A stretch of DNA of 61,471 nucleotides, filler included. It is 11 parts of 11 records of this genome, joined end to end, with 100 filler letters (N's around TTAATTAATTAA, not from the genome) between each part and the next. Parts side by side here need not be neighbours in the genome. Positions count along the whole stretch, not along the records: positions 41,701 to 46,922 come from SRR7504441_9283; 10 more parts are not named here. One strand, written 5' to 3'. The notes beneath the pieces are model-generated. The model saw only the letters and a program-made list of their open reading frames with translations, was not told the origin of the DNA and did not search any database. Numbering within the stretch: the stretch's first letter is position 1; each line of letters opens with the position of its first letter. A program made the position numbers and the translations under genes. Below, piece after piece: positions 1-55,700 of the stretch.

Positions 1-3000
1 GCCTACTGTGGTGGACTCATCAACTGGTGTCTTACTCCCCCTGAGAAACTCATACTTGCTGTGGTAGAGGGAAAGGATGATTTATGCAAATATGTTGTAA
101 GGATGTCAGAGGGACCATTCAAAGGGCGTTTGGCGCACATCGACACGCGCAGCATGCGTATTGCGGACTTTGGCTCTCGTGTACACGATTGGTTGCCTTT
201 CCAGGCTTCATCGTTGGTTCAAGCCGAGCCCAGCAGCTTCATTGATAAATTGGTTGGGTGCTGTGAAGACATGGATAAATGTTCCGGGCAGCCCATCAGC
301 AAGTCTGTCAACGGACAGTTAACAGCATTGTGTGACGCTATCGAGCAATCCAAGCAATCCAATGGCCTACTCGATATTCTGTCAAACTTCACCCCGACAT
401 CAATCAAAATGACAACAGGTGATGCACCAGGGCTTGAGGTAGAAGCACGATTCTCAATAGCTCGGGTTGACATCAAACTCTCAATCCAGATCAAATACGA
501 CATTGATTCCAAGAAACTAACCATGACTGCAAAGAATGAGAAAATGAGAGCCATCAACAAATACGTACAACTCGGGGGCTGGGTCTTGGCCCTGCAACAT
601 GATTTCAAAAGCTCTAAAAGTGAAATGAGTCTACAAGGGCAGACCAGCTTGTCATTTGGCATTAAAGGAATGAAGCCCCTCGTCGGTAAGGCCACGATCA
701 GGTTGCAAGCTGGTAAGATGTCTCTGCATGCCACGATCGAGTCAAACCAGAAATTGGAGCTGTTTGATCAGTTCAGCTTGAACGGAATTCAGGTGAGCAT
801 TACAAGCAGCTCAAAGCAGACAAGAATCACACTGCGAGCAAACGCCGCTGTCAAGTTTGCAGGCAAAGCCTTAGTGCTGTCTGTCAGAGGTGAAATCACA
901 TTCACCCAGGGGCGCACCACGCTTTCCATGTCTGGCAAGACACAGGGGATGCTGCCTGGAGTGTTTGGGCTGGATGTCGTCTCGATGGGCAAGTTCCGAC
1001 TGAATGTCGTGTTCACAGATGGGGTCGCTGACTATGCTGCACTCCTGGGCGTGCTGTGTGTGGGCGAAATTCAGCATTGCAAGGATGCACTCTCTCGTGA
1101 CAACAACTTAGTTGCAGAATTGACCTTGCTCTACCAAGCACCAGCTGGGAAGGCATGGGGTGGTGGGGATGCCAAACCTGAGGCTCTCAGTCAGAGCTCC
1201 TCATTCAGTGTAGACTCTTCGAGCAACACCCCCCCAGTCGGCGGGTGGGCCGCTTATGCCAAGGTCAGCAAGTTAAACCTCAGGAAAATCGTGCAGCTTT
1301 TTGCTGGATCAAGTGTCGCAGCCAAAGTCCCCAGCATTCTCAATCCAGGTCTGCTGCCAATTCAAGATGATTGCGACGAGACGGATGTAACCACCTGCTA
1401 CTGGATGATTGGCATGAGTGACAGGGACATGCTGCTGCCTCATCTCTCTCCAGCAATGGTGCTACATCGCGGAGTCTCGTTGCATGCGAAGATCAACTTC
1501 TTTGGAGAGCGTGGGATGGCCCAACTGTATGTTCCCGTTGGAGGCAACTCAGATAAAAAGAAATTCACATTCACTCTATCGGTGTTACCACAGGACGTCA
1601 AGTTTACTCCAGCGAAAACATTCGTCTCTGGCAGCATTCCGTCGGCAGAACCCAAGGCTGAAGAGAAGTTACCACGGATCATCAGCCTATTTGAAGACAA
1701 AGACGGCCAACTGCGTTACGAACTTGGGTGGCCTCAGATCTTTTCTTTTGCAAAGCGTGCTCTAAAGAAAGCGGCTCCCAAGCTTGCTAAAGCACTCGAT
1801 GTTCAAGGGCTTGTAGGGAAAGGAATCAATGCACTCGATTCAGTTATGTCCGAAAAGCTCAACCTGGACATGAAAGTGAAGCTCCACGGAGATCCAAAGT
1901 ACTTTTCGGTGGCAGGAGGGTACCAACTGGGAGGCAGCAAGATCAGCGCAGCTGTTCTCGTGTATCGTAAAGGCGGGACCAACTCTCTTGTGGCAGCAGT
2001 GTCATTCGATCTTGCCTTTTTTGCGCGACTGCTGGGGAAACTGATTGGTGGAAGCGTAGGGGATTTCTTGGCAAACCAGCAGCTGCTTGCAGCTATCCAT
2101 GTTGCTGTCATGATCTCAACTCATGACGTATCTTTGCCTCAGGGCTTTCAGTTGCCAGTGCCATTCCAAACCGAGCCAAGCGTGAAACGAGGGGTGTGCT
2201 TTGAAGGCAAAGTTGCCGCACCAGACGATTGTAAGGGAGACATCCTGTGCAACATCTTCAGTCCTGCCTTGCAGATCGCTCAGCCATTCTTAAAAGGGTG
2301 CTTCCATGCAGCGCTCGATGGCTCATCTGGTGCTGACTTCAAAATGGGTTTGAAGAACCTGAAATTGGGTTTTACCGATCAGTTAGTCATTGAAGAGCTT
2401 TCGTACTTCCTCAAGATGAACGCTGCTCCGCAGACTCCCCCTACGACTAAACTTGGGCTCAACCTAAGGGCAAAGCTGAAGCTTGAGGACCCGTTGATAT
2501 TCACTGGCCAGTTATATGTTGGAAAGGAAGGTGGCGCAATATTAGGGCTTAAGCTTGCAATGGCTGGTATGTTGAAGAATGCATTCGGCATTCCGAAATT
2601 TCACCTCGCCGACCTGGTTCTTGCGGGTGAGGTGATGGCTGCCCCTGGACCTCTTATTACAGTAAATCATCTTCTTGTGGGCGGCATGGTCTGCATCGGA
2701 GACTACAACGAATGCAAGCGCATGCAGTACGGCTGTAAGGGTTCGGATGACAAGGTTTCGAATGGCAAGGGTCCGAATGACGAGGATTCGGATGACGAGG
2801 ATTCGGATGACAAGTGTAATAAACAGTTGATGGACAAAACTGACGTGCGTTCTCCTGACAACAAAGAGGCTTGCAGCTCTTGTCCCGTAAAAGACAACAG
2901 ACAAGCCGAAGTAGCCAAGGACATCGCAAAAATCAACAAGAGTAAGAACCTAAAGGCCTTTGCAGCCAAAGCATATCTGGCTTTCCACAAGACAAGGGGA

Positions 3001-3390
3001 TATGCAGTGTATGCAGGGGTCACAGAATTGAGTTTGAACCAAATATCCCGAGCCTTTGCAGGGTATGATTTCCCAGACTGGATGGGCAACCCACGAATTG
3101 GGCCATATAACCAAACCAAATGCAAGGAACAGGGAGGCACTGCATGTTGGGCATACATCGCATTCGCGCCACTGGGGTTCAAGATCGAGGAACTTGGGGT
3201 CGTGATTCCAAGGGGCCAAACGATCTCTGGTCGACTCCACTTGTTTGATGTGTCGATGGGCTTCGAATGCACGGCCTTTGTTGACAAGCTACAGCTTCGG
3301 ATGGATGCCCCGCCGTTTAGCATTGGTCCTGCCGGCACACAGGTGCAAGTGTACCAAAGCAAGGATGGCAAGCTGGTCAGGGACAAAGGG
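1..3390 (+). CDS. Large uncharacterised beta-strand-rich protein with an internal duplication (partial at both ends)
   Basis: Frame open from base 1 to the contig end (>1100 aa) with no intron needed; two similar modules (GMLPGVFG..LCVGEIQHCK..AYAKVSKLNL and GMLKNAFG..VCIGDYNECK..VYAGVTELSL). Confidence 0.8.
2777..2811 (+). repeat. 15-bp coding tandem repeat (ATGACGAGGATTCGG) encoding an acidic DEDSD repeat
   Basis: Directly visible, about 2.3 copies. Confidence 0.8.
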
Positions 3391-3490
3391 NNNNNNNNNN
3401 NNNNNNNNNNNNNNNNNNNNNNNNNNNNNNNNNNTTAATTAATTAANNNNNNNNNNNNNNNNNNNNNNNNNNNNNNNNNNNNNNNNNNNN
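3391..3490. other. Artificial contig linker (N-run + TTAATTAATTAA + N-run); also at 11795-11894, 18292-18391, 24299-24398, 28909-29008, 34086-34185, 37444-37543, 41601-41700, 46923-47022, 57445-57544
   Basis: Ten near-identical 100-nt blocks carrying a six-frame stop linker; ORFs break at them. Confidence 0.98.
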
Positions 3491-6650: not shown

Positions 6651-7361
6651 CTAATCATCGGCAGCCACGCGGTCTCGCGCCGGCGGCGTGGCGCATTGGC
6701 CCATGCACCGGTGGTTGCCTTCACACTTGCCCCGCCGCCAAAACTCGACCACCAATACCCTCCGCTCGCCGCGAGTCACCATCGCCACCGAGTGCGCCTT
6801 GTGCGACAGAAACAGCAGGCAGTCGCCATACTCAAACGGCTGCTCGCTCAGCGCCTCACCCGAGCCGCGAGTGAGCATCTCGCCGCCTTCGAAATCAACC
6901 CCGGCACGGCTCAGCATCAGGTCGGCAGTCACGACACTGCCGGTGTCCACGTGTACCGGGCAGTCGGTCTTGGTCCGCTGGTTATACTGGTGGAACTCGA
7001 CGCACCTCGGCTCCAGCTCACCCGCCTCATGGCTGCCGATGTCCCAGTGCTCGCTGCAGGCCCGAACAGCCAGCTCTTTAATCCGGGCCACCAGCGGGGC
7101 GATAAGCTCGGGCAGCCCGCCGTGCTGCAGATACAGCTTACCCGGCTGGTCGGTGCCGTACCAGCCGGCCGCCTGGCGGTGCCGCCGCTTGTGGCAGGAC
7201 GCGGTCTCCAACACGCTCGACACGTCCGCCTCGCTGGCGAAGCCCCGGGCGCGCACCACCTGCGACCGGCCGGCGTGCTCCAGCAGCGCCTCCAGCTCGT
7301 GCCGCTGCCGCACCGCAGCCGGCACAGCCGCGGGGTCGCCCTCCTCCCTCCCCCGTTTCAT
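6651..7361 (-). CDS. 2-oxoglutarate/Fe(II)-dependent oxygenase (prolyl-4-hydroxylase-like fold), intronless
   Basis: HVD...DFEGGE...H(SVAMVTRGERR)VLVVEFW: HxD..H..R signature. Confidence 0.85.
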   Translation of the reverse strand: MKRGREEGDPAAVPAAVRQRHELEALLEHAGRSQVVRARGFASEADVSSVLETASCHKRRHRQAAGWYGTDQPGKLYLQHGGLPELIAPLVARIKELAVRACSEHWDIGSHEAGELEPRCVEFHQYNQRTKTDCPVHVDTGSVVTADLMLSRAGVDFEGGEMLTRGSGEALSEQPFEYGDCLLFLSHKAHSVAMVTRGERRVLVVEFWRRGKCEGNHRCMGQCATPPARDRVAADD

Positions 7362-7458
7362 ATGGCGACGCCGTGCGGCCGGAGTGGCTAACGGAAAGCC
7401 GTCAGCTGGCCGTCCCAGCGCAGCTTGGCAGGCTGTGCGGCACCGGTCACACGGTGAT

Positions 7459-9339
7459 ATGGATCCAGCGCAGTTCGCGTATCTGCTCAAGCTCAAGAAC
7501 GAGGGCAAGTCGCGCGAGCAGGTGGCCGAGGTGCCCGCCGGTTCTGGCCGCCGGCCAGCCGCTGGCAGGCCTGGGAGCGGCTGCAGTCCGACGGGGCGCA
7601 GGAGCCGGACCAGCTGAGCTGCTCGGAGCACGAGGCGGCGCTGGTGGGCAGGATCACCGAGCTGCACAACGACCCTTCCCTCAGCCTGGAGCAGAAGCAG
7701 CGGCTGGCCGGCCCGCTGATCAAGCAGCAGCAGCAGCTGGCCGCCCAACGCGCTCAGCCCGCCCTGCAGCCCGACCAGCTGGCCTCCAGCAAGCTCGGCC
7801 TGAGCCCGGCTGACCGACTGGCCGGGGCGGGTAAGATCAAGGAGGAGGCCAACCGGCTGTTCCGTGGCGGCGAGCTCGAGCTTGCCATGCAGCAGTATCT
7901 GCGGATGATTTGGATCCTCCAGCCCGGTGACCGCGAGTTCGACCCGGATCAAGTCCTGCTCCCCGGCCGGTGCCGCCCGAGCCCAGCCTAACTGACGGCG
8001 CGCAGGCCGCTCGGGCACGGGTTCGGAGCAGGCTGCGCTGAGGCGGCCGAGCAGTGGACAGTCGCGCTGCTGAATTGTGCGGCGGCGGCAGTGAAGCTCG
8101 GGCTGTGGGCGCGGGCCAAGCTGTGCGCTGAGGGAGTGCTCCAGACCGCCCCCGGGCAGCCGAAGGCGCTGTACCGGCGGGCACAGGCGCTGCACGGGGC
8201 CGGCGAGCTCGATCTGGCCAGAGATACGCTGCAGGAGCTTATCCGGAGCGACCCACTTAACTCTGCGGCGCGTGGGTTGCTCAAGCAGGTGCTGGCCGAG
8301 TACAAGCAGGCGCAGGCGCAGTTTGGTGGGATGTTCAGCCGGGGCGGCGAGATCTACACGGCAGAGCACCTGGCTGGGGTGCGGGAAGCGGAGAGTGCGG
8401 AGCGATTGAGTCATGAGAAGGGAGCCGCGGCGCGGCGGCGGCTCGCTCGGCACAAGATTAGGGCGGAGCACGGGCATGAGTATGACCCGGTGGAGAAGGT
8501 GACCAGCAGGCTGCCCGACGGGTTGTACGGCGTGCAGGCGTGCTGGCTGGCCGGGCGGCAGCTGACAGTGTGGGCAGATGGACGACTTGATCGGGCTAAC
8601 TGAGGACGAGAAATCCCAACGGCTCGGGCTAAAACCGGATCGGTCCAAGCCGCCCCAGCGGCCGGATTGGATGCCCGAGCGGCACTTTCATCAGTTGGCT
8701 AAGCTGCATAAGGAGGGATGCTCACCCGAGGCTCTGCGTGAGCGTTACGCGTTGATGAAACAAGATGAGAAGAACTGGGCGCGGGACAGGGTCAATGCGG
8801 AGGAAAGCCGCACGCTGCAGGAGCTAGTGGCACAGGGCCGGACGGAGGCCGAGTTGGATGCCGTGTTTGAAGACATTTATCTGGCGGTCGTGAAGAGAGA
8901 GAAGGAGACCGCAAAGCAGCAGGAAGCGGAACGAGAGCGATCAGAGGATCCTCTCGAAGCGGAACGGATGCTCACGGAGGCCAAGGCGAGGCTTGCTGAT
9001 TTGCGTAAATGGGGGCAGCCGTCCAAGGAGGCGGAGGCTGAGGTGCTCGAGCAGCATGTGAGGAGGCTGGAGACGGCGCTTGCTGTTCAGCAGCGGCCGA
9101 CAGAGATTGAAGCCGGGCTGCAGATGCTGTTGCAAACCGGGAAGAACGAGGAGCAGCTGGCCCGGCTAGTGCTCCAAGCACAGGATAGGCTAAAGTTGAA
9201 TCCGTTGCAAAGGCGACGGGTGCGGCAGTGCGCTGTGAGCGATGGCCTGGACTCAAATCAAGTGGCCATGCTTGTTGCTGTGGCACGAGAGGTGGTCGCG
9301 TCGTGGAGTCGAGCGCTAAGTGTCGACGACGCGTCTTAG
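7459..9339 (+). CDS. TPR-repeat protein with coiled-coil C-terminus (multi-exon)
   Basis: KEEANRLFRGG, LLNCAAAAVKLG, KALYRRAQA TPR motifs; exons joined by short introns. Confidence 0.75.
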
Positions 9340-18648: not shown

Positions 18649-21600
18649 TCAATCGATGAAATTGCTTATAATTGTGGACGGGAGAGTCCTCCGGGGCGTG
18701 AGCCCCGTGCGTGAAGTGGACTGGCCGGGACCTCTTGGCGTCAGCCCGGTGCGAGACGTGGAATGACCAATGCGCGAGCGAGGGGTGATCACTGCGCTTC
18801 GCGGGCTGAGCACTTGGCTCATTGTCGGCTGTTGCAGTTCTCTGTTGTAGTCCTCGTTGCTCTCTTTGATCAGATCAGACGTCGCATCAAACCAGAGTGT
18901 CTCGCCAGTCTCGTACGCCCGATCCTTTTGCACTATGTGAGCAGTGTTACTCGCCACAGATACTATCATGGAAACATCGTGAAGCAGCCGCTGCAGCACG
19001 TGCATCGGCTTGCTCACCGGACACAGCGGCTTCTTTGATACTCCATCGATTCCATCGCGGGCATCGAACTGGATCTCACTCTCCTCCCAGCGCTCTAGCA
19101 ATAAATTACCTGCACAATCGCCGTAATCAGCAGCGCGGGCGAGGAGTGACGCACAGAGAGCCTTGTGCCGCTGTGCCACTTGTACTTGCATCTTCCGGAT
19201 GGTCTTAAGCAGCTCCTGGTGTGGCGCAAGTTCTCTTTCAGCCCAAGGCCGGAAGTTGTCATCTGTCATAACGAGGCTCGGGTTGGCTTCTTTGATCTCG
19301 TCAAGAGCTGTACTCAGCATGCCCTGCCATTCCAAACCAATCAAAAGCCGAGGGTCGGCTTTATTCACCAATGTCTGCTCCGCGTTGTCGATATCCTCCT
19401 CCGCCTGCCATATGTCCAGCTCGCCCACCGGCAGGAACTCATCAAACGAGTCCTCGTCTGTCTGAGTAGCAGGGCTGGACTCAAAGCCTTGAAGGCAGGC
19501 ATTCAGTTCTACCAGCTCCTTGGGGTCGAATCCTTCGAACAGCGGGTCGTCCCAAAGTACATCAAGTACTGCTTCCATAGCAGCGCTTGTGCCAATTGGG
19601 CGATCACTATCTGGTTCTGGGTTCCCATTGAAACTTAAATTCTGCAATCAGCACAATTATCGCAGAAGTGTGCAGCAAGGGTTACCTGCCCGTTTGCGTA
19701 TACATCTTTCCCCAGGAAAATATGGAGCCCTAGTTTCTCTCGTCCAGGATCCGACCGCACCATTGTCGGAAAGCCATACCTAAATGGCCCGTGAGGCATC
19801 TTATGATACTGACTCTCGCCAGGCTCGACAAAATTACACCTGACACTCTACTCATTTCTGTGCAAACCCGAGGCGGAATACCAGTTGGCGAACGCGAGCA
19901 AAGCACGTACCAGGCAGCTGAATGACCGGCTTTGCATTATCATGTCTACAGAGGAAATGATGCGCTTCATGTGCTGCAGGCTCCGCTGCACAGGTGCGAG
20001 CGTCTCAGGCATGTCGTTGACTTGCCGGAGACATTCGATCCGCTTGTCTGCCTGGGGTATTTGCATGAAATACAGCAGTGCAAACTCGACGATGTTGGGC
20101 GTGGGAAGTTCCGCGCGAATGGCAGGCTTATTCCAATCCCAGACTGTACCGAGCCTGGAGAGCTCGTTGGGATCACTAGTCCTGGGAGGGAAGAAGTAAG
20201 CCTTCAGTTCCTCGGTCTCCTGGTATACTACCTCTTTGGAGCCGACCTTAATGATGCCATCCCTCGGAATCATTTGGGACGCACATCTGATACTCACCGG
20301 GTCGGTTGTGAATGTCTTGTCCATTGCCAGGAACGAGTCACGAAGGGCTACGATGAGTGCTTCGTTGAAAACACGTTTTTTCAGATGAGAATGAGTTTCC
20401 TTCAAGCGCCTCCCAACCTCAGACCGCTGGCCGTTCTGCAGCGCCACTTCAACCGTCCTGTAGCGCTCAGGCACGCCAAGGACTGCATTAACTTTCTGCG
20501 GCTTCACCAACTCGATCTCATATGTAAAGGGAGGCCCACTTAGCCCCATGTGCGAAGACTCAATGATGAAGCGATCGATACGAAGTCTCTCCGGCTCTTC
20601 CTTGGAGACCAGAACTATCCCATCCTGCTCCTTAACATCGCCCTCGAGCTGGAAGGTTCTCCCGCTAACGCCCTCACATCGCACGACCACAGACGTGTCT
20701 TTGTTCAAAGTCTCTACGGCTACAGCAGTCTCTTGGTTAACCTGAGCACCGCCAGTTACGCCCGCGTATACTGAAAAGGACCTTGGCAGGGTCGCCAGTC
20801 AGTGCAACAGAGAGGCGGGTTGATTGATTCGCCTGATTGGTATCAAACTTGAAGTTGACAGCTCCTCGAATAATAATCGACACAATCGTGGGATTCGCCA
20901 CAGCCTGCCGTACAACTCAGGACACAAGCGGCGATATGGCCGCACCTCTTCAGCGTCGCCAATGTTGGTGTCAAGGTCTAATGTGAAGTTCCTGACAACC
21001 TTTTCGCTTCGCTGGAACTTGCAAAATAGCGCCTCGCAGTATTGCTGCAGATCGCTGCTTTCCTTTGCCAGTGACTCGGTAAACCTGGTGATGTGACGAG
21101 CTGCTAGCCGCTGTTCCTCCTCCCATGTAGCAACTGCAAGCTCGAGAGAAGCTGCTGCTGCCTGAGCTATAGGCTCTAATGCCATTTCTGCTTCTTTCTT
21201 GCATCGGAAGACAGCTTGACAACTCTTATACACGTCCTGGATATATGTGCTGTCTTCATGCTGTCCAGGATATGTGGCGTTGCTCATGGCAATTTTTGAT
21301 AACAGCGCTGCTTCATGCAAGACCATCTTGGCTGCTTGAAGCGCTTCCTGCATGACCTTTTGCTGCATGCTGCTTCGAAGACTCAGCAGGCGGGCGAGTT
21401 CATGCTCTACAGCATGTGCTTCATGGTCACTGATGCTGTCTGCCATCATGAGATCATAAAAGAGGTTCCAGAAATCTGAGTTGACATAGGTTTGCTTCGT
21501 GCCAGGAGATGAAGGCGAGGCGACCGGCGATTCGACCGGGGAAGGCAGTCCAAAGATCCCTGGAATGACACAGATTCGCATGGTATTTGCCTTGAGGTTC

Positions 21601-24298
21601 TTTGCAGCTCGCATTTGGTGATTGAGCCGTTTCTTTTGCTCTTTTTTTGCCTCATCGTGCAAATCGGCACCTGGCTCGAGGCCAATACGACTCCTCTCGT
21701 CAAGCAGCTGTTCCAGCGACGAGAGAGCTGCCTTTGCTGCTGCTTGCCGCATCCCATCCGAAGGCAGCGACTCAATGCGAGCAAGCTCGGCCTTTGTGCT
21801 GGGCAGGTCGTAGATGCTTCCAGCGGCTTTGAACTTTTTGACTGTGGAGCATTGATCCCCGCCAACGCCAGCAAACTGGTCCCAGAATTGCTTCTTGGCG
21901 GTCCCGGGCAGTTGGAGCGCCCTCTTGCCTTCCGGCCAGTGGCGCCGAATCTTGCCCTCGCCTCCTCGATTTCCTTTACCGCCCTTGCCCTTGAACCAGC
22001 CCATACTCTCTCCAGCATCCTTTGCAAGCTCATCATTCACATCTGGCCAATCTTCCATCTCGAGTGCCTTCAAGGTTTCTACTGTGGACAGCAGCAGAGA
22101 ATGGTTAACGACCTGAGCCCTGGATGTCTCTTTCAGATCTTTCCGCAGCATCTCGGGTGTCTTGAGCCATTCAATGGCCACCTTTTCAGCCCTGAATGGA
22201 TTGAAGCCTTCCTTGTGCTTGAGAGTGTTTTCTAGTGTGAGGCGGAGATCCGTCAACCCATCGCGGTTCTGCTTCCAGAGTGGAATCATCTGTCTGTCGA
22301 TTCTGCCAAACTGTAGCAGATTCAACTCGGGGTCCTGCCACGCTGCCTTCAGATTCACCCCAACCTGTTCCTGCAACCGCTTGTCTTTGAGCGCTGCTTC
22401 AACCGCATCCTTTGCCGCTTCCTGCTCTTTCTCACGCTTATACACAGCCTTGTCCATGATGAGATTCTTGATTGCCAAGTCCAAACTATCGATAGCATCA
22501 GGTCGCAAGTCATCCAAGCTGTTACCCACGACCGAATTGACCTCACCTGGGTCTTGCAGGTTGACCACCTTGGCGCCCCAGCCGCACTTGGGGCAGTGCG
22601 GAAACCTCGTATGATCCCAGAAGCGCTTGGTAGGGCAGGTGATAACACCATGCGCCATTACTGCCAGCTCCTGGAATGCCACCAGTTCGTGAAGATTGAA
22701 CGGCACACGCTCTTGCATGGGCTCGCCAAACAAGGTATCCGTGCTCTTGTGACACCCTGAATTGCGTAGGATCTCGAGAACTGCGTGCTTGCCGATAGGC
22801 ACAATGATCGCATCGTGGAATGGCTGGTCAGGGTCCTCAGAAAAGCTGTCGATTTGAGGGTCGAAACCAGGCTCGCGGTGTAGATCGGAGGTGAGCATCC
22901 CCTGGTTGTGCTGTGCCACGCGTCCAACCAGCCCACGGCCTGTCGGAAAGCTTTCACCGACTGCACCTGGCGCCTGCACTTCTTCTGCAGGTATTTTGGG
23001 ATCCCCTGTCGTGCTGTAAACAGCCAGACGGGTAATCTGGCCATCGTGTCCCAACTTGTACAGAATTGCAGTCTGCTCGACCGGGTCCAATGCTGGGTCA
23101 TTGAATGGCGTCAGGGCGCAAGCTGCCTGCATAATCCGCGGCGCTGCATTCTCAAGTGCAAGTGGCCCAGCCAAGTCTGGAGAATCTGCAGATGACGTCT
23201 GACTGAGAACAGTGGTGAATTGACCGGACTGCTCACCATCCTTGGCGCTGGATGCGTGCACCGCTTGGGGCTTTGATGCGTCGGCCATGGACCTACGGAG
23301 ATTCTGTATTTGCTCCTCAAAAACTGCCTTCTGGTGCCGAAGTTGCTGCTGCGCCAACTTTAGGGCCTGTGCCGGATCGGCTACGGACGATAAGCTCTTC
23401 ATTTGTGATTCAGATGCCTCCTGGTAACTCGTCTGTAAGCTGAGCAGCCCCTGCTCAACTTTGGCCAGTGCACCCCCATTGCCGGCCCCTTGACCGGGCC
23501 CGAAACCCGCCCCGAGACCTGGCCCTTGGCCTGCCCCCTGCCCAGGCCCGAGGCCGGCTCCTTTGCCCGGTCCCTCCCCAGGACCTTTGCCTGGACCTTG
23601 ACCAGCCCCTTTGCCTGGACCAAGGCCGGCCCCTCGCCCGGCCCCTTGACCGGGTCCGAGGCCAGCCCCTTTGCCACGCCCAAGCCCGGCTCCTTGACCA
23701 GGTCCAAGCCCACCCTCGCCTCTAGTGGCATATGCATGAAGTGTCTCGATCGTGCACTCGTACTTCGCTTTCTGGTGATCGAGTAGCTTTTGCATCTCGC
23801 GCTTTTCCTCGTCAAACTTTTCCTGCTGCCTTCTCAGCTGTACATCTGGAACCAAAATTAACACTGGCTCTTGCTGTGGCACTCACCAGCAGACGATTCC
23901 TCGTTGTAGTGCTCCAGCTCCTGTTTGAATTTCCCCAACCGCCGCAGCTCGCTCTGCAGGCCACGGATGTGATCCTCCTGCACCTGAATTTTGTCTATTC
24001 GCCGACCTGTCTCCTCGATAGATCTGCATCCCCCCTGAGCCTTCAGGCAGCCACTGAAACACTCACGCTGCATTGGCCGAGCCCAACGCGCAGGCAGCAA
24101 TGTCAATTGCTTCGATTTCCAGATTGAATTCACGGATCGGGTCGGTCCATAGGACTTCCGGTTGGTCCGCACCAGTCTGTCAGAAGGCTCAGTCAGCAAC
24201 TCGAATAATCACATGTTGGTGGCTCGTCAACTGAAGCTATCCCATCGGTAGGTGGCTCGTACACTGAAGTAGGTTCATTGCGGTTGAAAGAACAGCAA
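18649..24298 (-). CDS. Large multi-exon protein: coiled coil, Gly-rich repeats, GAF domain and divergent formin FH2-like region (5' truncated)
   Basis: GAF-like FPTGRGLVGRVA..FDPQID..IIVPI..PFNLHE; FH2-like MQIPQADKRIE..SRSFSCLVRALLAFANW..YGF; ORFs join in frame via short GT-AG introns. Confidence 0.65.
23480..23715 (-). repeat. Coding degenerate tandem repeat (G-A/P-G-x-G-P-G-K/Q)n
   Basis: About ten ~24-bp units visible in DNA and protein. Confidence 0.8.
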
Positions 24299-41451: not shown

Positions 41452-42064
41452 GGCTGATGAGCACAACCGGGAGCTTTCCCCTCAGCTTGGCGCTTTCCCC
41501 CACCTGCAGGCAACTGTACTTCAGTTGGCGCTCGTGTCTCACCTCAACAAGCTTCAGTTTTACAGCATGCGCAAGGGACTGTTTCACGATCCCCAGAGTT
41601 NNNNNNNNNNNNNNNNNNNNNNNNNNNNNNNNNNNNNNNNNNNNTTAATTAATTAANNNNNNNNNNNNNNNNNNNNNNNNNNNNNNNNNNNNNNNNNNNN
41701 AGCGGCCACGGGAGAAGTAGTTTCAATCAACGGTTGGCACCAGGCACACGCGTCTGTGCCGCTGCGTAGATGGTGCTACTCGTGCCCGTGGAATACTCGG
41801 CACCTCACAGGTGGGGCATATGCATTCAATGAATAATGATCCCTCTAGATCTATAGATGATCAAAGGGCATCATGGCATGTGCACACAGGTCCACAGGCG
41901 GCCAGGCCGCAGACTCGGGACGTCGAATCATAGCCGCCCCGGCTGTTCGGTGGACAATGCGTGATATCGGCGACGATTTTAATTAAAATGTCATACGCAC
42001 GCTTCATGACTTTGTATGCACCTCAAGTTTAGCAGGTTATCAACGTACTGTCCTACGCCATGGA

Positions 42065-43267
42065 CTACAACATCGATTGCCCACGTGCAGAGTGAGCAAT
42101 CTCCTTGATCGCCGCCACTACAGCGTCCACCTCGAGCTCGGTATTGTAATACGAAGGGCTCAACCGCAGCGCAGGCCCACCCCGCCACGAGCTCTGATCG
42201 AAGCTGTGATTCCCGGGAGTCACGGACCCGTAGATCTGCCGCTCCGCCAGCAGCGATTTCAGCCTGGCCGATGGCACCGACTCCAGCACAAACACAACAA
42301 TAGGTGCCCGCTCCCCATCCCATCGAGCTGGCGCATCTCGGAACTCCACAAGCCCGGCCAATCCAGCTCTCAATCTATCGGCTAGACTTGTAGCCCGGGC
42401 CAGGATCCGGCTGGGCCCTATGTCAAGGCAGTACTGTGCGGCCACACCCAGCCCGACCCGAGCGGCCTGTCCTCCCTCCCACATTTCGTACCGACGGGCT
42501 CCTGTGTGCACCGTGTAGCTCTCGGGGCCAGTCCACTCAACCGCGTGATGATCGATCAGGCTGGGCTCGCCCACAAGCCCGGCCGCTCCGCTGCGGGCGT
42601 ACAAGAAACCACTCCCTCGGGGGCCTCGGAGCCATTTGCGGCCCGTCCCGCACGCAAAGCTGCACTGGATCCTCTGGACGTCCAGCGGCACCAGCCCGGC
42701 CGACTGGCACGCGTCGAGCAAGTACACCGCCCTGTGCCGCCGGCACACCTGCCCGACTTGTTCCGCCGGCTGTAGTGTCGACTTGTCTGTTTGCAGGTGG
42801 CAAAGCGCCACCACGCTCCTGGCTGCCCCCGCGAGCACAGCGTCCAGCTGCTGCAGGTCCACCATCCCGTCCGGGCGCATCGGGAGCACCTTCAGCTCGG
42901 CCCCAGACCGGCGGGCGGCCTGGATCATCCCGACCGCATTCCCGGCGTACTCGCACTCCCAGCAGACGATCCGATCACCCGGGCCGAGCGCCAGCGACCC
43001 GAGTGCCCGGGCCCAGCCCACCTGTGCGCTCTCCACCAGCGCTATTTCGCCCGGCCCGCTGGCGTTGAGCAGCGCTGCCAGCGCCGCCCGGGGGTCCGGC
43101 TGCTCGGCGGCCGCAGCGTACCCGCCGACCTGCCGCTCGCGCTCGAGAACCCTGAGCACGGCCGCGTGGGTGGGTGCGGCCGTCGGGCTGGCCCCCGCCG
43201 CGTTCATGTGCACGGCCGGCCCTATCCCCTCCCGCCAGCGCGCCAGCTCCTCGGGGCTCACTGCCAT
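42065..43267 (-). CDS. Class-V PLP-dependent aminotransferase / cysteine desulfurase-like enzyme, intronless
   Basis: HMNAAGAS, LDACQSAG, GTGRKWLRGPRGSGFLY (PLP lysine), LRLSPSYYNT. Confidence 0.88.
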   Translation of the reverse strand: MAVSPEELARWREGIGPAVHMNAAGASPTAAPTHAAVLRVLERERQVGGYAAAAEQPDPRAALAALLNASGPGEIALVESAQVGWARALGSLALGPGDRIVCWECEYAGNAVGMIQAARRSGAELKVLPMRPDGMVDLQQLDAVLAGAARSVVALCHLQTDKSTLQPAEQVGQVCRRHRAVYLLDACQSAGLVPLDVQRIQCSFACGTGRKWLRGPRGSGFLYARSGAAGLVGEPSLIDHHAVEWTGPESYTVHTGARRYEMWEGGQAARVGLGVAAQYCLDIGPSRILARATSLADRLRAGLAGLVEFRDAPARWDGERAPIVVFVLESVPSARLKSLLAERQIYGSVTPGNHSFDQSSWRGGPALRLSPSYYNTELEVDAVVAAIKEIAHSARGQSML

Positions 43268-43370
43268 TCGAGCACTGGCAAGTGGTCGTTGAAGTGCCGA
43301 ATCGCTATTTTTATCAGTCTCGGGCATCGGGCATCCAGTCGCAGAGCACAGCGGGAGGCAGGGCACAGCG

Positions 43371-44605
43371 ATGTCTTTCCGTCGAGGCCGTAAGAAGCGG
43401 GAGCAAGAGGTGGTGGAGGAAGCCCCGGTGATCGAGGTGCGCCCCCGCCCGACCGCCGACCGCCGACCGGGCCGGGCTGTGCAGGAGATACCAGACTACA
43501 GTAAGCCCAAGGACCAACTGGACCTGACCGAGGACGAGAAGGACGCAGACGTGGAGCGATGCCTGTCGGCTGCCAACCCGAACGCCCCGCTGAACCGGGC
43601 CGAGTTCAGCTACAAGGAGCGCTGCTTCAAGGTGAGCGAAGTGATCCAGCACACCATGTTCCACTTCAAATACGACGGGTGCCCCAGCAGCCGGCCGGGG
43701 GCGAGCCGGCGGGCAGCTGGCTGCTCGAGAAGAAGTCAGAGGCGGGTAAGACGCAGATCGAGCTGATGAAGAGCCGGGAGGCCGCCAAGGAAGCCGCAGA
43801 GCAGGCGGCGTTCGAGAAGAAAACCCTGGCCGGGGCCAAAGGAGAGGAGGTGGCCGAGTTTGACGAGTGCGACTTTCAGCTGGACAAACGGATCAGGAAC
43901 CAGTTCGACTTCGCTGAGCGCGCTTCCCAGACTTTCAACCTGACACTGCGTGAGCGAGTGATGACAACCGAGCCGCCGCCCAGCTCGACAGTGCAAGGCG
44001 TACAACAGTCAGTACTTGGAGACGTACCACGACCACCACATGTCAATCTATTCAGTCAAGTGGAACCCATTTGTGGAGCACGTTTTCATCTCTGCCTCAG
44101 CTGACTGGACTGTCAAGATCTGGGACCACCGCTGCCCCACCGCCATGATGAGCTTTGACCTGAACAACGCTGTGGGCGATGTGGCGTGGGCACCGTTCTC
44201 GTCAACTGTGTTTGTCGCTGTCACAGCAGATGGCAAGGTGATGGATCGCTGCTTCGGCCAAATGCTGAATTGGACCAGGTGAACGTGTTTGACCTGAACG
44301 AGAACAAACACGAGCCGCTCTGCGACCAGAAGGCGGTCAAGAAGTCCAAACTGACCCACGTGGTCTTCAACCGGCACGAGCCGATCATTGTTGTGGGCGA
44401 CGACAAGGGGTGCTTGCTCATGGCACGCCTGCGGGTTCTGACTGGCGGTTGCAGCTGGGTTAATTGTCTCAAGCTTTCGCCCAACTTGAGAAAGATTTCT
44501 CCCCCGGATAAGGAGAACCCTAAGAGCCACAAGGAAATGGAGATCGAAAAGCTTACAAGGATCTTGGTGTCTGCCGGCAAGGCGCAGGCCGAGGGCGCAC
44601 AGTGA
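43371..44605 (+). pseudogene. DNAI1: Axonemal outer-arm dynein intermediate chain 1 lacking its central region (pseudogene or misassembly)
   Basis: KPKDQLDLTE, NPNAP, RNQFDFAERASQT, TEPPP then an abrupt out-of-frame jump to [34 protein letters not shown]. Confidence 0.8.
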
Positions 44606-45056
44606 TGTGCAAAGATTCTCGAGACAACTATCTGAGGCGATTAACAAATCCATGCAACTGGCGTGGGCATTGTAAAATTCCACAACATAATATTAATGAC
44701 ACGTATTGCTTAAAATGAATTGTCATTGTACAATGTCATGATTGTAAGCGCTAGTATAATTACGACGTGTAATAGAATGCGACTTAGACGTTGGATGACG
44801 GCCCGCTGGTAAGCACGAGCATTACATGCTTCGTTACAAGCATGCCTAGAGTTAGAGCTTTTAATTTCGAATTGCTAGTATTCAACCGATGGCTTACAAG
44901 CAAGTACTTGGTTCACGAGGTACACCTTGCCAATGAGCTTGATCGGCAGTTTGGTCTTCCGCGTTTGTATAAACCTCATACATGTAGAGATATTTTGATG
45001 TAGGTCCGGCTAGCGCAGAGTAGGAATGTTATCCGGATGTTGCCGGGTTATTCACA

Positions 45057-46922
45057 TCACCAGGGCAGCTCACTGCCATCGTAGTTCAGGAACATCCCAT
45101 TCTGAATTGGCTGCAGTTCCTCCACAACACGCAAGCAGCCTTGAACAGAGACTGCTATCCCCATTGAAGTCTGCCGGACCAGAGTTGTATCGCCCGATTC
45201 AACGCTATCAGTGGCCCAAATGGAGCCAGTGCACCCTGGAGAAAGGGCCACCACAGAGAACCCCGAAGGCCCAAGCTCACTAGCGAGCACCCGACTAGCC
45301 ATGTTGAGCGCTGCACGGCAGATTCTCAAGCTCGGGCTCACATTGACTGACAGATCACTCACAGGTGCGGCCTGCCCGTAGTGTCAAATTGATTAGCCGG
45401 GCGGGGTTACCTCCGATATTGAGCCGACACGCGAGTTCAAGATTGCAATCTTCTTGATTGTCGACTTGTGGAGCAATGGAAGCAGGCTCTGCATCCCAAG
45501 GCGTCAAGTAGCAGCCAAGCTTTAATCACCTGGACAAGCTGGACGGTGCACACAGTAGTGGCTTCAAAGCAGCGAGTCATATTCTCCATGCCTCTTGGGG
45601 CTAGCAGGCTGTGCTCGTCCAGCTCGCTCCTCGATTCGGAGTTATTGTTAAGCAGCAGCACATCGATGCGCTCGATCCCATGCTGCGTAGCCAGCGTCTC
45701 CGCCGCACCAGCGACTGATGCAGCGTCAGTGACATCCATTGTCAGGCACACTGGAGCTGGAGCCTCAATCTCAGATGCGAGCTGGCTCAGCCGCCCCTGC
45801 AAGTCCTCCAACTCGCTGGCCCGTCGGCAAGTGGCTATCAAGCGCGCCCCAAACTGCACAACTTGCCCAGCTAGTGACCAGCCAATGCCATCGCCGCAGT
45901 TGGTCACTACAACCACCGCGCCAAGCCAACCGCTACCCTCTGCGTCGCCCCCAGCCGTTGCCGGGGCAACCCTCAGATGGCTAGCATTCGCATTCGACGA
46001 GCGGCGCAATATAGCAGCCTTGAGACTAGTCCAAGACGGGCCAAACACCAATGCCTGCTGGGTGGACAGCGGCTGCTCCTCGTGCGGGATGAACACGGCA
46101 TGGAGCTGCTTCACGAGCGGAACCTGCCACAGCCCATCGGATGTGCACTGGGCAAGAGGGCACACCACGTCGCTGTCGCTCACGACTATCGAGAGGTTGT
46201 GATCTTCAGAGCTCTGGGACAGCATTTCGATTGCGCTGCCCGAGAGGAATCTAAAGCCTTTCGATAGGCTGTGCAGGATCTTCCGGAGCCTCCTTCCAAC
46301 CACGGAGACAGAAGAGACCTGCGATAGCTGTCAGGTGCATCCAGCCTGTGCTGTCACCTCGTGCTTGACGGTGAGCTGCCCCATCGACTCGAGGGTGGTG
46401 ACCAGCTCTTTGAAGCCCTGCGACTCGACCCCTCCGGGCACATAGTCTAGCGTCACCTGGACGGCCAGCTGTTAGCGCGCGAGCGCCGCTCGAGTCACCG
46501 TGACAGAGGCCTGTGAGGTGGCTATCAAGTCGACGGAGATGCCACGCTCCTGATCAGTTGCTCAGCCACCAGCGAGGCAGGCTTGCGGGCACCTTGAACT
46601 TGTCGAAGAATCGGGCGAGGAATCCAGTTTCCTGCCACATCTTGAGGCTGGACAGCGTGAGCAGTGTCATCTTGGGCCTATGCACCACTGTGCAATCGAT
46701 CAGCCGGCCCCGGAGCGTGCTCGCACCCGCCAGAACCACCGCCTCCTTGAGTCCATTAGCCTGATCGTCCGGGCATATAGTTGTGCCCTCCACGTCGGGG
46801 TCGCTTGTCATTCTTATGCGGACCGGTACTCGCGCCCACTCGGCTGGCCACAGGCACTTGGGATGAAGCACCTACCCGAATTCGCCCGCCCGGCCGGTCC
46901 GCAACTACCTTGGCCCCTAGCG
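45057..46922 (-). CDS. Aspartate kinase (two ACT domains) fused to a C-terminal CsgA-like SDR domain (5' truncated)
   Basis: VLHPKC, MWQETGFLARFF, GISVDLIATS, VSVVGRR, NLSIVV, VFGPSW; then VVVTNCGDGIG, MDVTD, AALNM, NGMFLNYDGSELPW. Confidence 0.85.
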
Positions 46923-52710: not shown

Positions 52711-55700
52711 ATGGCAGATCCGCCGACCGGGGACCCGCACACGGCGGTGGCCCTGGCGCTTTCGACCCTCCAAGTTGCGTGCCCGCACTCGGACGGCCTG
52801 CCCGAAGCCTGCGCCAAAGCCTTGTCCAGCGTGCAGGCCCGGCGGGTCAACGAGGGGGCGGTGCTCCGAGCCCCTTTCGAGCGAACGCTCGCGCTGGCCG
52901 CGGCGGCTGGGCAGGAGATCTCAGCGAGCGCGGCGGTCAAGGAGGCGTTGGAGTGCCTGGCCGGACTAGTGCGGGGCGGGGGGCTCGGGCTGCTGGTGGG
53001 GGGCGATATCCGATTGGCCCGCGCGCTAATCGCCCGGGCCTGCGGCTGCTTCGAGCCCGAGGAGGAGCCGGCCACCGGGCAGGCCTTGATCGAGCTTGCC
53101 ACCGCGGTCGAGCTCAGCTGGCCGGAGGTCATCTCGGGGGAGGCGGTCCCTGCAGCCATCCGGATGCTCTGCCTAGTCCACGCGAGGAGCTCCGACTTGT
53201 CCACCTGTGCCGCCGCCTGGGGCCTGGCGGTTAGCGCGGTCAAGCGGTTCTATCGGACGCAGGCCCGCCCCTCGCTGGACGCTACGGTGCTCGCCCTCTG
53301 CCAGATCGGGGCTGCGCCGACCCCGACCTGTGCCCTTCACGGATCCGCGAGCGTCCAGCGGGCGGCTGTGGCCATCCAGCTCCTCCGGCACATCTTCACC
53401 GGACCGGCCAGTAACGAGCCGGTTTACTCGGCCGATCGCCCGCTGCCGCGGCCGCTCTGTGAAGGGGTGGGGGCGGTGGTGCTGCAGCATTGTGTGTCAG
53501 TTGTGCCAGACTTGCAGGAAATCACGCTCGGTCTCGTGGAGGCGCTGTGCATCCACTGCGCGGCCGAGCTGAGCGGGCCGCTGGCGGGGGTGCTGATGGT
53601 GGCGTACCCCGAGTTGCTCCGGCACTCGATGGTGCCAACTGAGAACAACGACGTGATGCCTAACAAGACTCAGATCCTTGACGCCTTATCGCGGGTGTTC
53701 CGGCGGCCCCGGGTGCTGAGCAGCCTGTACGCCGCGCTGGGCGATGAGATGATTGACGCACTGTTCGGCACTGTGGCTGCGCTTGCCAGCACGGGCAGCG
53801 ACCCAACCATTCAGCTGATAGCTCTCGCTGTGGCTGAAGCGGGGCTGACCGGCTGCCTTACGGTGCGCCCAGTCCCCGGGGGCGAGCTGAGGCGGGACAG
53901 GTGCATCGGCAGGACGCGATCCCGACTCCGCACGAGCACCTGGACATGGACGTCTACCTCTCGATTGTGGCCCGAGCCGAGGGGGGGGGGGCTCCCGTCG
54001 CCACTCACTCCGATCCCGGCTTCGATCCTGGGCAAGGAAAGCAGCGACTACTGGTTTTGCTTTGCGCCCAAAGTGGCCCCGTTTGAGCCGACGCATCTGG
54101 CCGCTTTCGGGCAGAAGTCGCTGTATGACATCTCGCAGAAAGCCAACCAGTTTGCAGGGCAGTTCAGGACTAGGGCAGTTCAGACGACAGGCAAGACGGG
54201 GCTGGAGGGCAAGGGGCGGGTGGACCGGGACGGGTTTAGGTCGTCGGCAGGGTTTGACATGGCTGTGTTTGAGAAATATGATAAGGATAAGGACGGGACG
54301 CTTGACAGTGACGAGCTTGAGGCGATGGCGGCGGCAAAGCACTCAGAGGAGCTGATGATGTGTGCGATGCGAACTCTCACGGGGCACGTGGTGGCTGTGC
54401 TGAAGCCAGTGCTGCCCCGGGTGGTGATCCGCAGCCTCAAGCTTTACGCTTCAGCAATCAACGCGTCAGGGTTCTGCCGGAACGCTGAACTAATGCAATC
54501 GATCCGAGACCAGCTCACGAGTGCGGCGCCTCTCAACTTCCCCAACCCTCACGCCGAGGAGTTGTACAACTTTCTGCTCGATCGCTCCTCACTGCACGCC
54601 CGGAAGATTGTTCTGCAGCATAAGATGCGCTCCACTGCGCTGTTCATGGCAAGCCAGCACTGCTCGACTGGGTATGTTATCAAGGCCGCACAAGCCAGTT
54701 CGACAGTCTGGCTGCATGCAGCGTATGGCCGGCTGTTGATTCGGCTGGAGGCCGAGTCCAAGCACCTGCCGCGTGAGATGGACTCGCTCCGTGACCGGAT
54801 GCACGACTTGGAGCAGGAGGAGCATTACGCAGCGGTCCAGAGGATCGTGGACGGACTTCAGGCTCTGCAGACGCTCCAGGTGCAGGACTTGAATGCGCTG
54901 CTGGCCAGCACATCGAAAGCGGTGACCGGCTGCGATGGGCGGGCTGACGGGGTGCAGATTGTGTCGTTACTCAACATGGTGCTGCGAATCTTGCCAGACT
55001 TCACGCCGACGACGCTACCACCCACCCGCTCCGCGAGAGCAGCGCTTGCTGCTCCACTGCTCCAAGCACTCAAACATTACGAGCTCCCAGCCACAGTCAA
55101 GTCGCCTGCCCGCTCGTCGCCACTCCCACCTCGGACCAAGAAAAGCCCAGCCTCAGTGGCAAGCTCCGAGAGGCCGGCAGTAGTCGAGCGGTCACGAGTC
55201 GGCCGGTGGTCGGCAAAAGACTCCATCGCGAAGCTCAAGAGGTGCCCGGCCCGGGTAAGCTGGCTGAGAGCAGTGCTTGTGCAGTCCTGGGCCCCAGAAC
55301 GGTACAGCAAGCAGCCCTTCCCTCCAGGGTGGGTTCTTCAGCTCCAGCAGTGCCAGTGTCAGAGTGGAGAAGGAGTCCAACGCGCCCAAGGAACCCAAGA
55401 GCTCACCAGCTCGCTGGTCGGCCAAAGATTCAATTGCCAAAATGTCCGGGTGCGCAGCCCGCTTGGCAGGCCGCTGAATAGCTGACAGGAAATCGACCCC
55501 AGCAAAAGCCTCGCCCCGACGAGCTAGCCCCTCATCAGACCAGCCTGGCTTCTTCCAATCTGGAGCCGCGCACGCAGAGGGCAAGAGCACTCCACGAGTT
55601 GGGTCGCCTGGTAGAGAGAAAGTCACACTTGGGCGCAAGGAGGAACAAGCGCTGGATAAGCACCGAGCGTCCAGAAGCCCTCGCCCGGCCTCTCCCGCCA

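Follow-up and report, generated by a model that had tools for sequence, protein, structure and literature searches.

A gene on the minus strand at positions 45057-46922 of the 61,471-nucleotide (nt) stretch of DNA analyzed here (the window) encodes the end of an aspartokinase (AK) of the LysAC type, known from AK/diaminopimelate decarboxylase enzymes, fused to a short-chain dehydrogenase/reductase (SDR) domain. An AK-SDR fusion had been proposed in an initial annotation made from the letters alone, and it was borne out: the architecture occurs in three lineages, its junction is spanned by one exon, and it is almost certainly real and conserved. The SDR lacks the catalytic Tyr and Lys in both full copies, as had also been proposed, and canonical catalysis has very probably been lost. 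Taken as a whole, the statement that a working AK carries a non-catalytic SDR, kept as a structural or dimerization module, has in our judgment slightly better than even odds of being right; for the structural role of the dead SDR by itself, we consider the odds about even.

The kinase-SDR junction in other sequences

The end of the second ACT domain (ACT2), the stretch VFGPSWTSLKAA, a linker, and the SDR's first 131 residues are all read without a stop from a single exon, 46123-45530. The initial annotation had placed ACT2 and the SDR start in one open reading frame (ORF), 45437-46303 (288 residues, minus strand). The ORF exists, and Pfam recognizes in it PF22468 (ACT_9; 27.6 bits, residues 4-51) and then adh_short (PF00106; 33.8 bits, residues 135-227; gathering cutoff, 26.6 bits), but it contains a 42-nt intron, 46124-46165, which is in frame and stop-free, so that the earlier reader saw a single ORF. 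Its last 93 nt (45437-45529) consist of the read-through intron 45489-45529 and out-of-frame exon sequence.

The protein P0002 (482 residues) is 47% identical to the window across the whole junction exon. Its cluster mate P0153 (679 residues) is a single open frame on a 2098-nt contig and runs from an AK catalytic domain (AA_kinase, E = 1.7e-34) through two ACT stretches (ACT_9, 3.8e-14) into the SDR (adh_short, 24.7 bits, slightly short of the cutoff); aligned with the spliced window model over 517 columns, it shows 58.2% identity. A third lineage, from a separate source, is represented by P0154 (205 residues), which covers ACT2, the linker, and the beginning of the SDR. Between ..LQG and VVFGPSW, P0154 carries 57 extra in-frame residues, absent from P0153, which we read as a retained intron of a genomic contig. 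AK-ACT-SDR thus recurs in P0153 and the ACT2-SDR junction in P0154, and a homologous linker (..LKAAI..SHLR.A..) stands at the same junction in both. Two further sequences, P0011 and P0155, are C-terminal fragments, both ending in ..FLNYDGSELPW; the stop position and this ending are common to three sequences.

Protein searches were made over 5.8 and 1.8 billion proteins. P0002 gave 1452 matches at E 0.001 or better among 1.84 billion representatives. In a local re-scan of 152 proteins (the 150 matches listed, plus P0001 and P0002), nine matched the SDR part, and both parts were matched only by the window, P0002, and the fragment P0034. Word-indexed protein searches returned only P0002 among longer proteins (and again for region 215-482) and P0011, P0034, and P0158 among shorter ones, the last an ordinary SDR. 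Scans of metagenome contigs with P0002 and with window positions 45530-46123 as queries gave matches to peptide patterns, none of which was confirmed by tblastn. The AK-SDR architecture is rare, with three lineages in all.

Gene structure

The gene is multi-exon, with its stop codon at 45057-45059 and seven GT..AG introns of 37, 43, 42, 39, 42, 41, and 39 nt in order from 46922 down. An eighth intron, 39 nt, GT..AG, and in frame, probably lies at 46688-46726; its excision gives ..AVVLAVVHRPKM, in agreement with ..PVVLAVVHRPKM of P0153, and if left in place it is an insertion relative to P0153. No RNA contig covers this interval. The spliced model has 526 residues with seven introns out and 513 with the probable eighth also out (509 from VLHPK, plus LGAK), and its domain order is kinase-domain end, first ACT domain (ACT1), ACT2, linker, SDR. 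Not one stop interrupts the 261 codons of the SDR frame, against 3-15 stops in the remaining five frames. Position 46922 is the end of the contig and truncates the gene rather than marking its end; the kinase catalytic domain therefore lies outside the window, and only its last residues (LGAK VLHPK..) lie inside. By its gene structure, the host is a eukaryote. The parts of the gene, all on the minus strand, are as follows.

46909..46922, minus: last 14 nt of an upstream exon (..LGAK, kinase domain), aligning to ..TLGAK of P0153; linker from 46923
46872..46908, minus: intron, 37 nt, GT..AG; in-frame TAG directly before 46871
46593..46871, minus: exon, kinase-domain end and ACT1 (VLHPK..MWQETGFLARFFDKFK); the probable in-frame intron 46688-46726 lies inside
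46499..46549, minus: exon ERGISVDLIATSQASVT, ACT1 core; introns 46550-46592 and 46457-46498 on either side
46358..46456, minus: exon (VTLDYVPGG..KHE), followed by intron 46319-46357
46166..46318, minus: exon, second ACT domain, 90% identical to P0002
46124..46165, minus: intron, 42 nt, in frame and stop-free; excised in an RNA contig of run X10, its 14 residues missing from P0002
46013..46123, minus: start of the junction exon, end of ACT2 and LysAC-type post-ACT stretch (VFGPSWTSLKAA)
45923..46012, minus: linker (ILRRSSNANASHLRVAPATAGGDAEGSGWL), junction exon, 13/28 identical to P0153
45530..45922, minus: N-terminal (cofactor-binding) half of the SDR, junction exon, 34/123 identical to P0153
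45881-45904, minus: TNCGDGIG, within the SDR N-terminal half
45638-45649, minus: NNNS, within the SDR N-terminal half
45411..45488, minus: exon (SLLPLLHKSTIKKIAILNSRVGSISE), strand betaE with the retained Ser; introns 45489-45529 and 45372-45410 on either side
45057..45371, minus: last exon, helix alphaF and C-terminal part ending ..FLNYDGSELPW, 57/82 identical to P0153
45315-45329, minus: LRICR in place of YxxxK, last exon

Two of the 37- to 43-nt introns (46688-46726 and 46124-46165) are multiples of three without stops and are read through as coding; an ORF-based reading of this genome therefore adds spurious segments of 13-14 residues.

The kinase part is of the LysAC type

For PF00696, the window holds only LGAK VLHPKCLWPAEW.., the last residues of the domain. 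The match in P0153 covers profile positions 75-233 of 234, the first ~74 being off its contig, and the kinase motifs GRGGSDTSAA and IWTDVHG are present. Two C-terminal ACT domains are found, by PF22468 on the window exon and as two stretches each in P0002 and P0153. Given the high conservation of the kinase and ACT parts and the intact kinase motifs of P0153, we read the protein as a working AK.

The best of 21 NCBIfam matches was NF006515 (AK/diaminopimelate decarboxylase; 136.5 bits, profile positions 293-484 of 861, reaching into the post-ACT linker), and the next-best model was that of lysine-sensitive AK III. The AK part of P0153 is 47% identical (186/397, BLASTP) to that of P0005, an AK-decarboxylase with both decarboxylase domains, and this alignment stops at FGPSWTSLKAAIME versus FGPTWELLQGATVD (FGPSW..LKAAI); the SDR starts where the decarboxylase of the relatives begins, in the place the initial annotation had assigned to it. 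A Pfam scan of relatives covered 51 of the 150 matches listed, the top-ranked and the long ones being chosen. Among the 46 relatives matched through the AK part, 23 carry the decarboxylase pyridoxal phosphate (PLP) domain and none carries adh_short or homoserine dehydrogenase. The LysAC type, suggested before on the strength of KMWQETGFLA and VFGPSW, both of which are present, is supported by the best model, the identity to P0005, and the proportion of relatives with a decarboxylase. The families PF02784 and PF00278 were found neither in P0002 or the exons of the window (E up to 1) nor in P0153 (E up to 0.001).

Compared with LysAC itself, the kinase end, both ACT domains, and the post-ACT FGPSW..LKAA match best; the decarboxylase is absent, an SDR follows the linker instead, and the score is far under the equivalog cutoff of 802. 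Among solved structures, E. coli AK III (2j0w, lysine-sensitive; P0153 residues 4-372, E = 2.1e-50) is the best match to the AK part; it and other monofunctional AKs end where the linker and SDR start here. A paper on oomycetes reports a grouping of oomycete AKs with bacterial bifunctional AK-decarboxylase enzymes (PMC2705460).

P0156, an AK fragment that is together with P0003 the closest AK relative, has a homologous linker (..LKAAI..KHLRTAAS) and ends ~50 residues past it. Judged by eye, its tail (..WWQ..LLALL) is like the decarboxylase start of P0004, but BLASTP gave no significant match there.

The SDR has lost its catalytic residues and kept its fold

The SDR catalytic tetrad (N-S-Y-K) and the cofactor motifs, TGxxx[AG]xG and NNAG, are taken here as defined in textbooks. 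In an alignment with active relatives (A1), their TGxxRGLG is TNCGDGIG in the window, TGCGTPLA in P0002, and TGCGKALG in P0154; NNAG is NNNS in the window and AHNG in P0002, and the Asn of TNVxG is Thr in the window and Ala in P0002 (P0154 ends before both positions). The tetrad Ser is kept in the window (LNSRVGS) and in P0002/P0153 (MTSRLAS). The SYRxS[KR] of active relatives is SLRICR in the window and CSRIGQ in P0002, so that the positions of the catalytic Tyr and Lys hold Leu/Arg in the window and Ser/Gln in P0153. Opposite the N-S-Y-K of active relatives, the window thus has T-S-L-R and P0002/P0153 have A-S-S-Q. The degenerate motifs pointed out before (TNCGDGIG, NNNS, and LRICR) are all present, opposite TGxxRGLG, NNAG, and YRxS[KR]. 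Neither the window nor P0002 fits the two cofactor motifs, and only P0154 (TGCGKALG) fits the first. With the catalytic Tyr, Lys, and Asn and most of the cofactor motifs gone, the SDR domain reads as a pseudo-enzyme.

The nearest active relatives, P0067, P0105, P0134, P0146, and P0158, are 27-29% identical to P0002 and carry the full set of classical motifs; two of them, P0146 and P0158, are plain SDRs. In P0067 (a dinoflagellate transcriptome, by its EukProt label), a pterin-4a-carbinolamine dehydratase domain precedes the SDR, and a different N-terminal extension, of 125-200 residues and with no Pfam match at 1e-6, is common to P0105 and P0134. Three active-looking relatives have Arg instead of the catalytic Lys (YRISR/YRMSR). 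A further relative, P0149 (249 residues, stand-alone, from a transcriptome), is without the catalytic Tyr and Lys (..SRRISNAALNM) and without NNAG. It clusters with the two fused copies in an eight-sequence tree (support 96/97); catalysis may already have been lost before the fusion arose, or alternatively P0149 could be an incomplete transcript.

An AlphaFold2 model of P0002, built from a 12-row alignment, has a predicted local distance difference test (pLDDT) score of mostly 66-95 over residues 230-470, and its ACT part is poor. The modeled order of strands and helices is classical, from betaA-alphaB to betaF-alphaG. Foldseek gave at least 500 matches at E 0.001 or better, and all 34 rows listed were SDR-fold proteins, mostly reductases or dehydrogenases; the best were carbonyl reductases, including Sniffer (3wxb_B, 7ypd_A, 7xwi, 1sny, and 1yo6; template modeling score 0.71-0.82 by target, 18-22% identity). 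A phmmer search against solved SDRs returned none at E 0.001 or better, and at E up to 1 the NmrA family matched neither the window exons nor P0002. Two alignments that mixed AK and SDR relatives (A3 and A4) were set aside, the SDR exon of the window being misaligned in them at 12-13% identity. Compared with sniffer/CsgA-like reductases (3wxb, 1sny, 1yo6, 7xwi; NF049951, PRK06953, PRK08177), the fold, the length, and the ..Y/FxxYDGxxLPW-type end are alike; the Tyr, Lys, Asn, NNAG, and Gly motif are lost here, and the domain is fused behind an AK.

Constraint falls on the C-terminal half of the SDR

Between the window and P0153, the AK part is identical at 177/226 positions (78%), the SDR N-terminal half at 34/123 (28%), the SDR middle at 18/44, and the last 82 positions at 57 (70%). 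In P0002 numbering, SDR residues 232-330 are identical at 25/99 positions and residues 331-482 at 83/152. By comparison, ten pairs of active relatives show roughly equal values for the two halves (0.38-0.56 for the N-terminal half, 0.33-0.60 for the C-terminal half). The closer pair, P0154/P0155 versus P0153, follows the same order (ACT2, 67/70; SDR start, 22/31; SDR C-terminal part, 64/83). On these comparisons the cofactor-binding half appears to be much relaxed, and helix alphaF, strand betaF, and the tail appear to be still constrained, a pattern that fits poorly with a conserved dinucleotide pocket and well with a conserved surface. Neutral decay in relatives, which had been named as an outcome that would speak against a function, was not seen; the SDR frame is intact in them.

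Two copies of P0002 residues 225-482 were predicted to pair, with a score of 0.85 in each of three runs; the best of three controls scored 0.00. The runs share at least 98% of contacts, with a partner pLDDT of 83. The mark used was reached by 21 of 30 proteins solved as same-chain pairs and by 0 of 23 solved as single chains; on eukaryotic proteins these counts were 17/29 and 0/30, but only 1/7 for those without an older solved relative. The predicted interface comprises residues 331-359 (alphaE), 378-416 (loop and alphaF), 469-470, and 481-482 (the last two residues). A two-fold contact through alphaE and alphaF is the usual SDR dimer contact. Interface positions are identical at 29/45, versus 79/206 elsewhere in the domain (permutation p = 0.0012).

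RNA evidence

RNA contigs were available from four libraries of four studies (X8, X9, X10, and X14), three of them polyA or oligo-dT selected. X10, an oligo-dT library, yielded a 249-nt spliced contig over 46293-46004, which joins 46121 to 46164 (equally cut at +2) with CT..AC on the plus strand; this contig is real mRNA. The N-terminal half of the SDR is covered by contigs of X9 (45633-45918) and X14 (45682-45891), and X8 contributes contigs over 45207-45335 and 45003-45153, the latter running past the stop into the 3' flank. No contig of these libraries lies over 45919-46003, over 45374-45632, or above 46293. A transcript ending before the SDR, the finding that the initial annotation had set against the fusion, was not observed, as SDR sequence occurs in polyA- or oligo-dT-selected libraries; on the other hand, no contig bridges the AK to the SDR.

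Besides the deletion described below, the X9 contig differs from the window at four other letters, and C>A is seen at 45677 in the N-terminal half of the SDR. In record 4 of X8, the segment 45352-45373 is on the plus strand and 45207-45335 on the minus strand, and this strand switch was treated as a contig artifact. The differences in X9 and the switch in X8 could come from errors, variants, or faults of assembly.

A structural role for the SDR and its alternatives

In the explanation we favor, an uncultured marine eukaryote has a genuine and conserved nuclear gene encoding a LysAC-type AK whose C-terminal diaminopimelate decarboxylase was presumably exchanged for a sniffer/CsgA-like SDR, catalytically dead but with its fold kept. 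The feedback-regulated kinase and its ACT domains would be the strongly constrained part and would be active. The dead SDR may be retained for its C-terminal surface (alphaE, alphaF, and the tail) as a two-fold dimer contact, and that contact would give the kinase a second oligomerization or scaffold point setting its quaternary state, a role that a dimeric decarboxylase domain would have in its place. Both kinase activity and dimerization as the selected function are what we infer, and the homodimer is a predicted one.

Several points weigh against this explanation. Only three lineages are known, the kinase N terminus is seen in no copy, and P0002 and P0153 may derive from either RNA or DNA. 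The adh_short score is under the 26.6-bit cutoff in P0002 (25.5 bits) as well as in P0153 (24.7 bits). No RNA contig bridges 46004-45918 and no SDR contig crosses an intron, so that transcription of the SDR in the window organism is likely, short of proof. A 1-nt deletion at 45678 in the X9 contig (depth 3.4) could reflect either an error or a variant. The window copy still has G-x-G-I-G, an Arg following strand betaB (CRR), and the MDVTD Asp; it may thus still bind a cofactor. Set against the rest of the C-terminal half (54/107), the interface identity of 29/45 is not significant (Fisher p = 0.15). SDR dimers are common among solved structures, so the homodimer result may reflect likeness and not binding.

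If the dead SDR were instead an NADP(H) sensor, binding cofactor and relaying redox state to the AK in the manner of atypical SDR regulators like NmrA and HSCARG, the features just listed for the window copy, together with its NNN, would be accounted for, as would the TGCGKALG of P0154, which fits the classical Gly motif, and the Rossmann fold, which is modeled with high confidence. A sensor would, however, be expected to conserve its pocket, and the cofactor half is the least conserved part of the protein (25/99), while active relatives keep both halves alike; P0002/P0153 have TGCGTPLA and AHNG and no Arg after betaB (CAHGS), and the NmrA family is without a match at E up to 1. We therefore consider a sensor unlikely. 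The initial annotation had offered both roles: the oligomerization module agrees with the predicted homodimer and the conserved C-terminal half, whereas the dinucleotide sensor fits poorly, given the varying Gly motif and the 25/99 identity. A more specific form, in which the pseudo-SDR binds NADP(H) in at least some lineages and serves as a built-in redox sensor gating entry to the Lys/Thr/Met pathway by reducing power, is a little less likely again. AK is otherwise controlled by end-product amino acids via its ACT domains, and such a sensor, if real, would be a new kind of allosteric input for the enzyme.

The SDR might also be a functionless, decaying remnant carried along by an essential kinase. 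Orthologues with 78% identity in their AK parts share only 25-28% in the N-terminal half of the SDR, the end branches of the dead copies in the SDR tree are 0.67-1.3 long versus 0.37-0.58 in four active eukaryotic-type relatives, and the G+C content at third codon positions is 0.59-0.66 in the SDR versus 0.76 in the AK part. A useless tail would, however, be expected to be truncated, and here the frame is open over 261 codons of the window and across the entire P0153 domain, the stop position is shared, the C-terminal 82 positions are 70% identical, and three sequences end in ..FLNYDGSELPW; decay is quite improbable. About as improbable, and if anything slightly more so, is an oxidoreductase working with non-canonical residues. 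The tetrad Ser is kept in both full copies (LNSRVGS, MTSRLAS), and three active-looking relatives already have Arg for Lys (YRISR, YRMSR); against this, Tyr is replaced by Leu in the window and by Ser in P0153 and no conserved Tyr lies close by, the Lys position is Arg or Gln and the Asn position Thr or Ala, and NNAG and the Gly motif are degenerate in a lineage-specific manner. Finally, two neighboring genes or a chimeric contig could have been taken for one gene, given that the window is a chain of short metagenome contigs, that the gene is incomplete, and that the junction is without a bridging RNA contig. The junction nevertheless lies within one exon of one contig, at least 800 nt from the contig end, and P0153 and P0154, which come from other sources, have this junction too, with a homologous linker; an artifact is thereby largely refuted and is highly improbable. 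What likelihood is left falls to some other protein-binding role of the SDR domain.

Relation to known aspartokinase fusions

AK controls the entry of carbon into the synthesis of lysine, threonine, and methionine, and both of its known fusion partners are enzymes of the same pathway. NCBIfam models of AK fusions, as searched, are only those with homoserine dehydrogenase and with diaminopimelate decarboxylase, and full-text literature searches listed no report of an AK-SDR fusion. The SDR is a third fusion partner of AK, unexpected both in architecture and in being dead; since the partner is catalytically dead, channeling or co-expression of two activities cannot explain the fusion. AK-homoserine dehydrogenases (ThrA/MetL, NF006959) likewise have a Rossmann-fold domain behind the AK and ACT domains, but the NF006959 match is weak and confined to the AK part (39.8 bits), and the domain here is an SDR without catalytic residues. 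SDR folds with non-catalytic roles are known in NmrA, HSCARG/NMRAL1, and HSD17B10 (mitochondrial RNase P). All three belong to other SDR subfamilies and stand alone, and the regulators among them keep the dinucleotide site, whereas in the fused SDR that site is the least conserved part.

Eukaryotic LysAC-type AKs of 750-840 residues with tails of 240-325 residues were also encountered among the closest AK relatives (P0007, P0013, P0017, P0020, P0028, P0037, and P0039), and no Pfam family matched their tails above noise. The taxid given with P0020 (87120) resolves to a basidiomycete, at odds with the marine transcriptome label of that protein, and was not used. When four of these AKs and two cluster mates (P0007, P0013, P0020, P0028, P0161, and P0162) are combined in a profile, it aligns to a LysAC profile along the AK part and ~70 columns into the decarboxylase, with YPLSWS opposite the LysAC PLP-lysine motif YAMKAN; judged from this alignment, the tails of the P0007/P0013/P0020/P0028 group have the appearance of truncated and dead decarboxylase domains. 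A second group of this kind consists of P0032 and P0039; the tail of P0032 gave a weak decarboxylase match only (E = 0.14), and P0039 is labeled a Batrachochytrium salamandrivorans hypothetical protein. It thus seems that a non-catalytic domain has been kept behind a LysAC-type kinase in several eukaryotic lineages, which makes a catalysis-independent role more plausible. Together, the dead tails and the dead SDR suggest that in this kinase type the structural role of the C-terminal domain outlives its chemistry. Because the architecture is rare, it matters more for domain recruitment and pseudo-enzymes than for general metabolism.

The source contig and the rest of the window

Rather than one molecule, the window is a set of about 11 short contigs strung together artificially. 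A spacer word, TTAATTAATTAA, which carries stops in six frames and has N runs on either side, occurs 10 times (at 3435, 11839, 18336, 24343, 28953, 34130, 37488, 41645, 46967, and 57489), where none is expected by chance. Since the contigs were joined, neighborhood across a spacer is meaningless. The G+C content is strongly uneven among the pieces (0.49-0.71 in 2-kb bins), and these are possibly not all from one organism. The AK-SDR gene lies on the piece from about 41657 to 46922. Public runs sharing 10-16% of sampled words are all labeled marine, seawater, or aquatic metagenome or metatranscriptome.

Other contigs of the window hold four long open frames of 665-1145 residues, at 1-3438 (plus), 20799-23882 (minus), 52711-55485 (plus), and 6651-8648 (minus), none of which matched a Pfam family at E 1e-5 or better. 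On the same contig as the AK-SDR gene, 42065-43366 (minus) is a class-V aminotransferase ORF of 433 residues, the clusters nearest to it in the Atlas being without exception bacterial or archaeal, and 43371-44700 (plus) is a split WD40-repeat gene, convergent on the 3' end of the aspartokinase gene.

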